From: Nitrospirota bacterium
Lineage (GTDB): Bacteria; Nitrospirota; Thermodesulfovibrionia; Thermodesulfovibrionales; Dissulfurispiraceae
Reading direction: 5' to 3'
NCBI GenBank assembly: GCA_963790025.1
Contig: CAWBMP010000004.1
Coordinates: 992,001 to 1,056,000 of the forward strand
DNA: 64,000 nt
Part shown: positions 19,360 through 22,671 of the stretch, in pieces
How the letters are laid out: every line of letters starts with the position of its first letter
Numbering within the stretch: the stretch's first letter is position 1
Made by a program: the position numbers and the translations under genes
The notes under the pieces: generated by a model
The model's input: the letters and a program-made list of their open reading frames with translations, nothing else
Databases searched by the model: none
What the model was told of the DNA's origin: nothing

Positions 19360-22300
19360 TCATTTATCATGAAACTGACCTGATGTCAAACACCCTGTTC
19401 CTGCACGCACCCGTTTGCCGGTGATTATCCTTGACGCATTGCTTTCAAGTGTATCTATCCTACCCTCAAATGCTGCATTAGCCAAAATCGTGGTTGTCCT
19501 CTGAAATGCTGCCGACGCAAGAAAACTTTTTGAGTACAGCGGTATCTGACTGATGCCGAGGAGCACGGGAGTCGCTGTCGGAGGCTTCAAGCCTCTTCGC
19601 CGGGTCCTGTCACACTCATCTTCAAATTCGCTCTTATGAATAATATCACCTGTCAGAAACCTTGCCCCCCGGCTGTCTGTAACTTTCACAAATCCGGTCA
19701 TCTGGCTAAGTATTATTTCAAAATGCTTGTCATGTATTACCACTCCCTGTTTGCGGTATATCTTCTGGGCTTCATCGAGTAAATATTTCCACACTGCTCC
19801 GCCACCTGCAGCATGCAACAGATCATGGGGGTTGACTGCACCGTCAATGTTACTGAGCTCCGCCGCTCTGCGCGGCCTTCTTGCTTCAAGAAGGTCAATA
19901 ACCTCCGGAAGCCCGCCGGTTATGTCCATGGGAGTGACAACTGCTCCACCGGTATGAAATGTTCGCAGGGTAAGCTGGGTCCCGGGCTCACCTATGGACT
20001 GAGCTGCGATAATACCCACCGCGTCCCCTGTCTCTGCGGGCCTGCGGCTGCCGACATTGAATCCGTAGCAGCGCGCACAAACGCCGCGTTGCGCCTTGCA
20101 GGTAAGCACAGACCGCACTTTGACCTTTTCTATTTTTGCCTTGCTGATTTTTGCCGCTGTCGCTTTATCCAAAACGGTGCCATACGATACGAGCACAGTG
20201 CAGGAGTCTATGTCCAGAACGTTATCTGCCAATGCCCTGCCGGTTATTCTCTCCTCCAGAGAAATTTCTACTGTACCGCCGTTCTTCAGCGGTCCAAGGT
20301 AAATGCCTTCGAGCGTCCCGCAATCATCCGTAGTTACGATGAGGTCACGCGCAGCACTCACCAGCCTTCTCGTAAAATAGCCCGCCGCCGGCGTCTTCAT
20401 GGGGCCATCCACCCTGCCCTTTCGCGCCCCGTGCGTGGAAAGAAAAAACTGGAATGCACTTAACCCTTCTCTGAAATTCGATGTAATCGGCATTTCTACA
20501 ATTTCACCCGTGGGCTTGGCCATCAAACCCCTCATGCCGTTTATTTGGCGTATCTGGTTGAAGTCGCCTCTCGCGCCAGAATCACACATCATAAAAAGGG
20601 CATTGGATTCTACATGCCGGTCTTCTTTTAATACGCGCATCGCTTCAGATGTTATCCTGTCGGTTGCTCTCGTCCATACGTCGATTTCCTTATTATGCCT
20701 TTCGTTGTCAGACATCAAACCGGTTTCATAATGGCTCCTCACCTCCGCTGCTTCCTCCTCTGCCTCAGCAACAATGGCCGCCTTTTCGGAAGGGACGAGC
20801 ATGTCATCAAGACAAAGCGATATGCCCGACAACGTCGCATATTTAAACCCAATGCCTTTTATCTCATCCAGAAACCTGATCGTCTCCCTGACGCCGCACT
20901 TTTCATAGCACAACTCGATTAAGCCGGCAAGTTCCTTTTTATTTAAGACTTTATTTATTACCGCGAAGGGTATACCTGCTGGAGTTATGGCATAGAACAG
21001 CACCCTTCCAGCCGTTGTTCTTACCAAGGCGCCATCTATTCTGACCTGAATGCTGGAATGTTCTTCTACAATATTGTTTGCATATGCAATACACACCTCG
21101 TCCACATCCGAGAAAAGCATTCCTTCCCCTTTTCCCCTTTTTCCCGATTTCCCATCGCTGGTCAAATAATAAATACCCAGGACAATGTCCTGAGACGGCA
21201 ATAAAGCAGGCCTGCCGTTGGCCGGATGGAATAAATTGTTAGTGGACATCATGAGGACCCTCGCCTCTATCTGTGCTTCAAGTGAGAGAGGCACATGCAC
21301 TGCAATGGTATCTCCGTCAAAATCGGCATTGAAGCCCGAACACACAAGAGGATGGAGCCTTATTGCAGCGCCTTCAACAAGGACAGGATCAAAGGCTTGC
21401 ATGCTTAATTTATGCAAAGTCGGCGCCCGGTTTATTATGACTGGATGCTCGGCAATTATATCATCGAGGGCGTCCCAGACTTCTGGTTTCTCTTTTTCAA
21501 AAAGCCGCTTTGCCTGTTTCAGCCTTGGGGCAAACCCATTTTTAATAAGCCACCGGTATATAAATGGCCTGAAAAGCTCAAGTGCCATTGCCTTCGGAAT
21601 GCCGACCTGATGGATTTTCAATTCCGGCCCTATAGTAATATGTGCCCTTCCGGAATAGTCGACCCTTTTGGCAAGAAGATTATGTCTGAATATTCCACTC
21701 TTAGAGCTTATCATCTCTGAGAGCGATTTAAGCGGCCTTTTTTGAGACCGGTTTTTGACGGCAACATTCCTGCCATTGTCGAGCAGGCTGTCAACTGCGG
21801 CCTGAAGAAGCCTTTTTGCATTCTGAAGTATTATTTCTGGAGCGCCGAGGTGAATAAGTCTTCGCAAGCTTTGATTTTTGTAAATGACCTTGCTATAAAG
21901 CAGATTAAGATCGGAGGCAACAGTAGTCCCGGCGTCAGGAAAAATTATGGGGCGCAGGTCAGGGGGCAATACAGGCAGCATGTCTAAAATCATCCACTCC
22001 GGTTTGTTTCCGGACTTCAGGAGTTTCTCGATCAAAGAGAGTCTGCTTCTTTTTCTCAGGGATAACGTGCCATTCTCTTTAAGTCCCTTCGGAATGGCAT
22101 CCAGGTCAAGGCCTGTAAGTAGTTTCCTGATCGCTTCCGCACCGGTTTCAACATGGAAATGATCGCATGAAGTCCGGTATTTTCTGTACTCTTCATGTGT
22201 AATTGTCTGGTTCTGTTTGAGACCGCTGTCGCCCGGATCAATTACAACATAAAATTCGTATTGCACGATTTTTTGGACCTGCCGGGGAGGCAGTCCCAGT

Positions 22301-22671
22301 ATCCTTGCAAGAACGCTTTTAGGCCCTTTGTAATACCAGATGTGCGCAACAGGCGCAGCGAGAGTTATGTGGCCGAGTCTTTTTCTTCTCTCTTCCGGTT
22401 CCAGCAGCCCCGTACCGCAAGTCTTACATGAGGCTGCTCCACCGTTATCTGTGCCACAAGAACATTTACCCTTTCTTACCGGGCCGAATATTCCTTCGCA
22501 GAATAACCCATTTTTTACCGGGCCGCCATTTTTTAAACTGAATGTTTCCGGCGAAGACACCTCGCCATAAGATAATAAACTCTTCCCGAGGGGACTTAAA
22601 AGACCGATTCTAAGAGAATCAAATGCCTGATTATCGATCATAGGTTGTTGGCTGCAGGGACATGCCTCCAT
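19360..22671 (-). CDS. rpoC: Orphan, shortened DNA-directed RNA polymerase beta' subunit paralogue (1103 aa)
   Basis: GLFCEGIFGP, RVDYSGR, NRAPTLH, NADFDGD, STHGARKG, SIGEPGTQLTLRTFH, DITGGLP, SFLASAAFQ, RAGTG; no rpoB or ribosomal protein genes nearby. Confidence 0.95.
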   Translation of the reverse strand: MEACPCSQQPMIDNQAFDSLRIGLLSPLGKSLLSYGEVSSPETFSLKNGGPVKNGLFCEGIFGPVRKGKCSCGTDNGGAASCKTCGTGLLEPEERRKRLGHITLAAPVAHIWYYKGPKSVLARILGLPPRQVQKIVQYEFYVVIDPGDSGLKQNQTITHEEYRKYRTSCDHFHVETGAEAIRKLLTGLDLDAIPKGLKENGTLSLRKRSRLSLIEKLLKSGNKPEWMILDMLPVLPPDLRPIIFPDAGTTVASDLNLLYSKVIYKNQSLRRLIHLGAPEIILQNAKRLLQAAVDSLLDNGRNVAVKNRSQKRPLKSLSEMISSKSGIFRHNLLAKRVDYSGRAHITIGPELKIHQVGIPKAMALELFRPFIYRWLIKNGFAPRLKQAKRLFEKEKPEVWDALDDIIAEHPVIINRAPTLHKLSMQAFDPVLVEGAAIRLHPLVCSGFNADFDGDTIAVHVPLSLEAQIEARVLMMSTNNLFHPANGRPALLPSQDIVLGIYYLTSDGKSGKRGKGEGMLFSDVDEVCIAYANNIVEEHSSIQVRIDGALVRTTAGRVLFYAITPAGIPFAVINKVLNKKELAGLIELCYEKCGVRETIRFLDEIKGIGFKYATLSGISLCLDDMLVPSEKAAIVAEAEEEAAEVRSHYETGLMSDNERHNKEIDVWTRATDRITSEAMRVLKEDRHVESNALFMMCDSGARGDFNQIRQINGMRGLMAKPTGEIVEMPITSNFREGLSAFQFFLSTHGARKGRVDGPMKTPAAGYFTRRLVSAARDLIVTTDDCGTLEGIYLGPLKNGGTVEISLEERITGRALADNVLDIDSCTVLVSYGTVLDKATAAKISKAKIEKVKVRSVLTCKAQRGVCARCYGFNVGSRRPAETGDAVGIIAAQSIGEPGTQLTLRTFHTGGAVVTPMDITGGLPEVIDLLEARRPRRAAELSNIDGAVNPHDLLHAAGGGAVWKYLLDEAQKIYRKQGVVIHDKHFEIILSQMTGFVKVTDSRGARFLTGDIIHKSEFEDECDRTRRRGLKPPTATPVLLGISQIPLYSKSFLASAAFQRTTTILANAAFEGRIDTLESNASRIITGKRVRAGTGCLTSGQFHDK

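Follow-up and report, generated by a model that had tools for sequence, protein, structure and literature searches.

An orphan RNA polymerase β' subunit

The 64,000-nucleotide stretch of Nitrospirota DNA analysed here (the window) lies on contig C4 of a 3.45-Mb genome (five contigs, 98.8% complete; designated G000) and carries rpoC2, a gene for an orphan paralog of the RNA polymerase (RNAP) β' subunit. Names of close homologues put the host in the Nitrospirota, Thermodesulfovibrionales. The genes of the window place it in a ~90-kb conjugative element with F-type type IV secretion system (T4SS) genes, type IV pili, a relaxase and ParM. An earlier reading made from the letters alone (the sequence-only reading) had described an uninterrupted 1103-codon rpoC with the catalytic NADFDGD, both zinc sites and the trigger loop, without rpoB, rplL or rpsL neighbours, and all of this holds. 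The protein scores 1262.6 bits against TIGR02386 (cut-off 963.5) and contains all five Rpb1 Pfam domains. The eight zinc cysteines and the trigger-loop residues Q929, R933 and H936 (Escherichia coli numbering, used throughout) are all present, and none of the three genes was found near rpoC2. The canonical rplL-rpoB-rpoC operon of G000 is on contig C2, and in a genome search RpoB matches one place and RpoC two; rpoC2 is not the sole rpoC. A housekeeping RpoC is encoded by a single-copy gene in the rpoBC operon; RpoC2, 47% identical to the canonical RpoC of G000, comes from a second copy with that operon elsewhere.

The many changes claimed at normally invariant positions are borne out. At 603 positions the E. 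coli residue is shared by no fewer than 95% of 103 canonical proteins; RpoC2 of the window keeps 383 of these, and 220 are changed or deleted (59 deleted). The retained fraction is 83% in the catalytic barrel, 84% in the trigger loop and 85% in the F-loop, and 38% in the Zn-binding domain, 42% in the lid, 46% in switch 5, 54% in the zipper and 65% in the clamp helices. The sigma70-contact surfaces are not conserved: Y46/R47, R259 and R270/R275/R278/E295 read L, K, T, S, K, S and A. SI3 (about 942-1131) and most of the jaw (about 1161-1212) are absent. This loss is confined to the genus clade of G000, so that the description of the protein as "streamlined" suits this clade and not the other family members, which retain both.

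We compared 30 RpoC2 family sequences, several of them close kin, with the 103 canonical proteins. The zinc cysteines (C70, C72, C85, C88, C814, C888, C895, C898) are kept in 30/30, as are K334, R339, K345, R346, R352, R425, A426, P427, N458, D460, D462, D464, H777, T790, G794, Q929, R933 and H936. R259 (lid), L783 (arginine in all), T786 and E1327 are kept in 0/30, and Y46, R47 (zipper), F49, E52, F260, R270, N274, M298 and E301 are mostly replaced. Position 275 is K or R in 30/30, and E295 stays glutamate in 9/30. According to the available excerpts, R275, E295 and A302 of β' are required for holoenzyme formation (PMC8321222), and the zipper Tyr-Arg pair, there numbered 47/48, acts in promoter use (PMC3173786).

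Distribution and evolution of RpoC2

A region search of 390 Thermodesulfovibrionia genomes for rpoC, with inspection of the second matches, identified RpoC2 in 22 genomes, either complete, truncated by a contig end or with a frameshift (G000, G001, G003, G004, G006, G007, G009, G011, G018, G092, G098, G099, G106, G189, G275, G283, G287, G292, G293, G294, G319 and G324; G098 was admitted on score and identity). With remnants in G002 and G012, the count is 24/390. This is a lower bound, because G293 gave one match only, itself RpoC2. Several second matches were left out of the family: those of G013, G184 and G334, where rpoB adjoins; of G210, where rpsL adjoins; of G269, a split canonical rpoC; of contig C135 of G092, a degenerate rpoBC pair; of G341, G375 and G381, a separate paralog type; and of G198 and G204, sigma54-linked cassettes. 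From their coordinates and scores, the remaining double matches were taken for split genes, genes at contig ends or likely contaminants.

The 22 family rows group together in a single clade (FastTree support 0.97; 57 rows, 1047 columns); the joining of RpoC2 with phage and sigma54-cassette proteins in this tree is likely long-branch attraction. The ratio of nonsynonymous to synonymous substitution rates (dN/dS, by an NG86 script) is 0.09-0.21 for rpoC2 (14 pairs), far below the value of 1 by which the sequence-only reading would have recognised a decaying duplicate. For comparison, it is 0.013-0.031 for canonical rpoC (11 pairs), 0.05-0.11 for virB4 (7 pairs) and 0.10-0.24 for the sigma-like gene described below (8 pairs). 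Within the genus, the dS of rpoC2 tracks that of canonical rpoC (0.41 vs 0.40; 1.40 vs 1.67), and the rpoC2 locus keeps its place beside dGTPase-groESL. The element has therefore long been resident in the genus, and host-type genes have since come inside it. Broken copies occur in G002, G004, G007, G012 and G324 and as the second copy of G275. In G012 (L047:8375-8875) and on contig C149 of G275 (L329:9370-9900), parB-relaxase is followed only by a 166-176-aa rpoC piece, the remnant of a decayed copy.

The linked orphan homologues that the sequence-only reading called for exist, syntenic in independent assemblies and in metagenome loci. Among twelve metagenome loci retrieved with a family-specific pattern (several of them short), rpoC2 has no adjoining rpoB in 12/12 and a relaxase is visible in 8/12. 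One contig of a Bacteroidales-labelled metagenome-assembled genome (L198) has parB-relaxase-rpoC2, with motifs close to those of metagenome loci L288 and L297. By its label it lies outside Nitrospirota, which may reflect transfer or misbinning. A GTDB-wide scan used a loose pattern, and the matches listed (at least 120) were filled with canonical Bacilli rpoC. The pattern scan of IMG/VR for RpoC2 gave 0 matches. In PLSDB 71 records matched, and the 40 listed resemble chromosomal rpoC.

A promoter-like box before element operons

The upstream motif that rpoC2 was said to have in common with the transfer genes is there. AAGTAATAT occurs 7 times in the window, in 7/7 cases in sense orientation before element genes (Table 1), and 47 times in the entire genome; two further copies lie in the element past the window. 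The window boxes sit 38-160 nt ahead of the first start codon of an element gene, except the one at 40065, just within a long-called open reading frame (ORF) whose relatives start later.

We examined 12 element spans set by gene landmarks, with 280 same-composition permutations of AGTAATAT for comparison. These spans hold 72 copies of AGTAATAT against about 25 expected from base content. Of the 72 copies 56 are sense-upstream, or 47/60 once G000, where the box was first seen, is left out. By the number of sense-upstream copies AGTAATAT ranks 1/280, the next permutation having 17 and the mean being 4.8 (standard deviation 4.5). Outside the element in G000, across 2,999 upstream windows, its rank is 133/280. 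Taking TAATAT as the -10 hexamer, the sequence ahead of it is A-rich to -17 and that from +1 to +3 purine-rich, with no -35 signal.

AGTAATAT marks operon starts in other families too (G287, G292, G316, G319), and it precedes the rpoC2-bearing unit in G000, G001, G006, G011, G012 and G293. It occurs 0 times in G018 and once in G099. In these two genomes the variant GGTACTAT is found at 6 places, 5 of which are close to a start on the same strand. The sigma-like protein of G018 is divergent, and in that genome GGTACTAT occupies the orthologous place before parM.

A sigma-like protein of the element

No Pfam sigma family was matched within the element, and all four matches in G000 lie elsewhere in the genome. 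The candidate sigma factor is P0270, encoded about 77 kb from rpoC2 in an operon with the order 499-aa helix-turn-helix (HTH) gene, 250-aa P0270, an unnamed 187-aa protein and traL/E/K/B, an HTH_3 repressor gene facing away. G006 and G018 have the same order. The sigma70-type promoter ahead of this regulator operon matches at 11/12 positions, and the box does not occur in the 20-kb stretch holding the operon.

In the model of P0270 (mean pLDDT 68) an N-domain of four helices is joined by a disordered linker to an α/β C-domain, the latter unlike sigma domain 4. Among its 15 best structural matches 14 are named sigma factors (Z 6.2-7.4), followed by a terpene-type synthase (Z 6.0). The sigma matches all start at residue 1 of P0270 and most end near residue 85. 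The N-domain lines up by eye with region 2 of the host RpoD, and PF04542 is found in 34% of the members of the Atlas cluster of P0270. The structural matches give modest, consistent support for a predicted sigma-domain-2 fold. A complex prediction for the RpoC2 clamp (10-335) and the sigma-like N-domain (1-85) scored 0.01 against a mark of 0.32, and informs neither way.

The sigma-like profile matches 21/390 genomes, of which 17 have RpoC2 whole or broken and 4 show none. G002, G004 and G007 retain just the C-terminal end of the sigma-like gene, and their rpoC2 is either reduced to a remnant or frameshifted; in G004 virB4, virD4 and the relaxase gene are broken as well.

Some further observations concern sigma factors. 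The sigma-like proteins of G018 (L099:1252-2253) and G099 (L098:1498-2511) have an extra N-terminal segment, by eye a second degenerate domain 2. In G287 (L060:482-2276), G283, G292, G293 and G319 the parB-type element also has a gene for a small sigma70-family protein of two domains, and wherever the contig extends far enough a DnaN-like gene adjoins it. Across clades, an acidic residue in region 2.2 of sigma accompanies the kept R278; as this is one change on the tree and rests on presumed contacts, we do not count it. A 262-aa gene adjoining rpoC2 in relatives was dropped as the sigma gene, its protein being Replic_Relax-like.

Gene layout of the element

The element extends past the window to about C4:1095000. 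VirB4, a coupling protein, a relaxase and mating-pair genes are all present, as expected of a conjugative element (Table 1). One tyrosine-recombinase query, the recombinase type searched for, matched nothing within about 95 kb of the G000 element, and no tRNA gene was found at its ends. The label of the relaxase comes from an Atlas match (0.95) to a cluster with PF13814 in 16-19% of its members and one homolog that passes the Pfam cut-off; the window protein has no Pfam match of its own.

Table 1. Features of the element (positions in the window, unless given for contig C4)
Feature	Position	Strand	Remarks
Box AAGTAATAT before parM	13594..13602	+	same before parM in G002, G003, G004, G006, G007, G009, G099
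ParM-like actin ATPase	13754..14737	+	left end of element; converges on rpoC2 in relatives
Small gene after parM, putatively ParR-like by position	14753..15049	+	kept beside parM
rpoC2, orphan RNAP β' paralog, 1103 aa	19360..22671	-	single open frame, no stop; Pfam and TIGR02386
Catalytic NADFDGD of rpoC2	21310..21330	-	N458, D460, D462, D464 kept in 30/30 family sequences
Box before rpoC2, putative -10-only promoter	22701..22709	-	first base 38 nt upstream of ATG
546-aa element protein, no known family	25185..26825	-	homologs within transfer regions of G007, G011, G018
Box before 546-aa element gene	26903..26911	-	homolog in G007, G011 also has box
Replic_Relax-like (PF13814) relaxase	33644..34432	-	just before rpoC2 in most relatives
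VirD4-type coupling protein	34429..36417	-	PF02534
VirB4/TraC ATPase	36411..39020	-	family matches
pilT, lytic transglycosylase, traG-like, unknown, traF-like thioredoxin, traU-like, pilP	39045..46469	-	
Box before pilT-virB4-virD4-relaxase	40057..40065	-	
Box before pilP-traU-traF-traG	46543..46551	-	
Type IV pilus genes (secretin, pilB, pilC, pseudopilins, pilT)	48408..59695	-	inserted phd-vapC pair
Box before major pseudopilin operon	53095..53103	-	
Box before secretin / type IV pilus operon	59731..59739	-	
P0270, 250-aa sigma-domain-2-like protein	C4:1091669-1092418	-	outside window; behind 499-aa HTH gene
499-aa HTH gene, TTGACA-16-TATATT promoter, divergent HTH_3 repressor gene	C4:1092394-1094890		

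The family lies mostly beside a Replic_Relax relaxase gene with T4SS or partition genes, in two layouts. In the genus of G000, and in G018 and G099 as well, the order is virB4-virD4-relaxase-(variable)-rpoC2, facing parM. In G092, G106, G275, G283, G287, G292, G293, G294, G319 and G324 it is parB-relaxase-rpoC2, with a relaxase-rpoC2 gap of about 6-35 nt where the frames do not overlap. The distance from relaxase to rpoC2 is short in most relatives, about 11 kb in G000 and about 17 kb in G011. In G000 host-type genes (formate dehydrogenase, FKBP, cysE, htrA) surround rpoC2 and part it from the transfer genes; the placement of rpoC2 in a conjugative/type IV pilus island is thus right as to the element, and has to be amended as to this interruption.

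Other features of the window may be mentioned. Between dGTPase and parM (12152-13753) lie 1.6 kb with blocks 68-96% identical across five relatives, a candidate oriT, centromere or RNA. An AbiEii-like gene flanked by 25-nt inverted repeats (46680-47599) forms a small inserted element, and an ISNCY transposase gene with 21-nt perfect inverted repeats lies at 1323-2729. Directly after rpoC2 (18726-19379, - strand), a thioredoxin-TPR gene with an in-frame UGA in UxxC likely encodes a selenoprotein shortened by ORF calling. The gene for the formate dehydrogenase alpha subunit (27060-30254, + strand) is split by an in-frame stop at 27711-27713, likely a selenocysteine UGA.

A proposed swap-in polymerase

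rpoC2 is a real, conserved gene under selection and part of a coherent module. From the observed parts, their order, their conservation and the residue pattern, we infer the assembly, activity and start sites of an RpoC2 enzyme. Probably, a swap-in β' and a private sigma on the host α2β transcribe the transfer regulon. The sequence-only reading had already suggested a specialised RNAP for the element's genes, and the element-encoded sigma-2-like protein and the conservation of the box across families lend this suggestion support at the level of sequence. Host sigma70 would transcribe the regulator operon once the HTH repressor lifts, and the sigma-like protein would bind core and open the box AGTAATAT, a -10 without a -35, ahead of the transfer operons and of rpoC2. 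Since rpoC2 itself stands behind the box, the first round must run on the host core. RpoC2 would replace β' during assembly on the host's single α2β; having an intact active site and re-cut zipper, lid and clamp helices, this core would prefer the element factor over host sigma70, and the outcome would be a dedicated holoenzyme. RpoC2 would thereby add a positive feedback that drives pili, T4SS, relaxase and partition genes, with transfer-gene expression freed from competition with host sigmas. A wider claim is that element β' and sigma on host α2β make an orthogonal polymerase, which reads a private -10-only promoter and largely ignores host sigma70 promoters, and that the same swap may have arisen separately in phages with β' but no β; here we consider the case for and against evenly poised.

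Several observations weigh against the swap-in polymerase. The bridge helix of the window protein is remodelled (L783R, T786G, A787P, A791P, L796F, D802S). Across the family L783R is found in 30/30 and T786 is G, S or A, prolines occur at 787 and 791 in about half of the sequences, and K781 is replaced by T in 3/30. In the part of PMC3077646 available, the K781 alanine mutant is inactive, and alanine at 785, 786, 788 or 802 gives defects. To judge from these sequences, the bridge-helix changes could slow catalysis. The fold score of P0270 is below Z 8, a range where a common helical arrangement can score; Foldseek gives a probability up to 0.97 with E above 0.1 and no match of E <0.001, and Pfam finds no family in P0270, neither Sigma70_r2 nor r4. 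The box is missing from 72 kb of contig in G283. A sigma-like gene is present without detected RpoC2 in G014, G207, G257 and G316, which may have a sigma-only element; these four genomes also lack an adjoining relaxase gene, and draft gaps may therefore explain the absent RpoC2. Conversely, a clear sigma-like match is missing from 7/24 RpoC2 genomes (G009, G011, G012, G098, G106, G283, G319); in G011 a weak syntenic sigma-like gene was seen (E=0.08), and the contig of G319 starts short of the place that this gene takes in G292. G324 retains the sigma-like gene with rpoC2 in pieces, and the co-decay in G007 is perhaps an assembly error, because its canonical rpoC is also split. As the genomes are kin and not independent trials, we give no P value for the co-occurrence.

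Five rival accounts have to be weighed. The sigma-like factor and the box might use ordinary host core, RpoC2 being an optional elongation booster on the long transfer operons, with altered pausing, termination and response to NusG-type or secondary-channel factors, and no part in promoter choice. The position of rpoC2 behind the box, so that host core must be enough at first, agrees with this, as do the four genomes with a sigma-like gene and no RpoC2 detected, and the SI3, jaw, switch-1, rim-helix and bridge-helix changes suggest altered elongation. Yet the family-wide changes take in the zipper and lid, the loss of SI3 and jaw is confined to a single clade, and in the four genomes the relaxase end of the element is missing too; we regard the booster as rather unlikely. 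Core RNAP can prime on single-stranded DNA, and an RpoC2 core might make RNA primers on single-stranded or replicating element DNA without sigma, in place of a primase. The gene is nearly always in an operon with the relaxase, with parB, or adjoining parM, dnaN-like genes are near in G283, G287 and G293, and the downstream-DNA residues K1311 and R1330 are often changed. Primer synthesis leaves the co-occurrence of RpoC2 and the sigma-like gene in 17 genomes unexplained, however; the relaxase is far from rpoC2 in G011 and G000, and a recipient cell would need to assemble the enzyme first. It thus seems distinctly improbable.

The sequence-only reading had also offered a decoy that titrates β. 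Such an RpoC2 would tie up host α2β and damp host transcription in mating cells, and there is a single rpoB to compete for; the bridge-helix prolines and the lost sigma70 contacts could make a poor enzyme. We disfavour the decoy, to which we attach very little probability, because it would not need the catalytic residues: in 30/30 there is no change in the aspartate triad or in the residues that bind NTP and hybrid, despite the 220/603 invariant positions altered or deleted in the window protein. It is scarcely credible that the box serves as an activator site or as a -10 element for host sigma70, that the 250-aa protein is no sigma and that the three parts are merely linked passengers. TAATAT does agree with the general TAnnnT pattern, and the fold scores and the α/β C-terminal domain would fit; set against this are the absence of enrichment before host genes and of a -35, and the alignment of the P0270 N-domain with host RpoD region 2. 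Lastly, although single copies decay, as the broken ones attest, a decaying duplicate or a misassembly is refuted for the family by the dN/dS values, the common family substitutions and the synteny across several families and metagenome contigs, and deserves practically no credence.

In the textbook view a bacterium has one core RNAP and redirects it by means of sigma and other factors; a mobile element supplies such factors or, in the case of jumbo phages, an entire enzyme. If the swap-in polymerase is real, replacement of β' with a matched sigma would be a third route, a bacterial parallel to the specialised eukaryotic polymerases that share subunits. It would be a new kind of system if the enzyme works as we infer. 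RpoC2 proteins offer natural β' variants for testing the roles of zipper, lid, clamp helices, bridge helix, SI3 and jaw, and two genes with an 8-bp box could make a compact orthogonal expression system.

Comparison with known systems

A literature search, with most subscription papers outside its coverage, found no conjugative element with its own β' and no β' swap with a matched sigma. Like canonical RpoC, RpoC2 passes the TIGR02386 cut-off and keeps the catalytic, zinc and trigger-loop residues. It differs as a second copy without an rpoB partner gene, in its altered sigma-contact surfaces, in the loss of SI3 and jaw (this clade) and in a dN/dS roughly five- to ten-fold higher. The available part of a survey of 2,307 Proteobacteria reports only Thioploca ingrica with two rpoC and one rpoB (PMC6403173).

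The SNF2-linked β' of Nitrospirota is likewise an orphan rpoC product within the same class. It is the opposite of RpoC2 in that its sigma-contact motifs are kept, its trigger loop is eroded and it nests inside canonical Nitrospirota RpoC. We noted orphan or degenerate β' with an eroded trigger loop in G375 (L069:4776-12534), G381 (L068), G341 (L070) and contig C135 of G092 (L058); an SNF2 helicase gene adjoins in G375 and G381, and the three members placed in the tree nest in canonical Nitrospirota RpoC. G198 (contig C32, L072:6034-13109) encodes a very divergent RpoC-like protein of 1595 aa, and G204 (contig C115, L073:5806-15585) a very divergent RpoBC-like one of 2296 aa. A sigma54-activator ATPase gene follows both, and in G204 a sigma54 DNA-binding-domain gene as well, possibly forming a mobile polymerase cassette that brings its own sigma54-type system; a reverse transcriptase-Cas1 fusion is encoded near the cassette of G204 (L073:745-2835). 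The rpoB2/rpoB(R) genes of Nocardia and Nonomuraea are a second large-subunit copy that assembles with the shared other subunits. They encode β, are chromosomal and near the main copy, are tied to rifamycin resistance, and are not known to have a private sigma or promoter.

Stand-alone β' genes occur in phages. Rhizobium phage RHph_TM30 encodes an 1127-aa β' (L165:7944-11327) with no β beside the gene, and no Rhizobium phage is among 38 RpoB matches. Ralstonia phage RP13 and Vibrio phages Va2 and 150E35-1 also have β' matches and are absent from the RpoB list, and Jug phages encode RpoC, according to the accessible text of PMC12880540. The β' of RHph_TM30 and its kin differs from RpoC2 in being phage-borne, at 32% identity and outside the RpoC2 clade. 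By analogy, these genes may use the same swap-in idea; the accessible literature text proposes no mechanism for them, and the accessible portions of PMC4621102 and PMC10783043 do not discuss them.

In its sigma and promoter the proposed system would work like T4 late transcription, though it is a different system. In the available text of PMC2988020, the sigma70 likeness of gp55 is confined to domain 2, and the 8-bp late promoter lies at -10 with no conserved -35; here, too, the putative element sigma would resemble sigma70 in domain 2 only, and the short -10-like box has no -35. T4 uses host β' and needs gp33 and the sliding clamp, whereas a conjugative element here has its own β'. The non-virion polymerases of phiKZ and AR9 and YonO are element-encoded two-barrel enzymes for the element's own genes (PMC7824862, PMC2919709, as far as their available text goes). 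They are self-sufficient, with both barrels encoded; G000, on the other hand, has one rpoB, and none lies beside rpoC2 there or at the twelve metagenome loci. RpoC2 is the β' half only, and would have to borrow host β.

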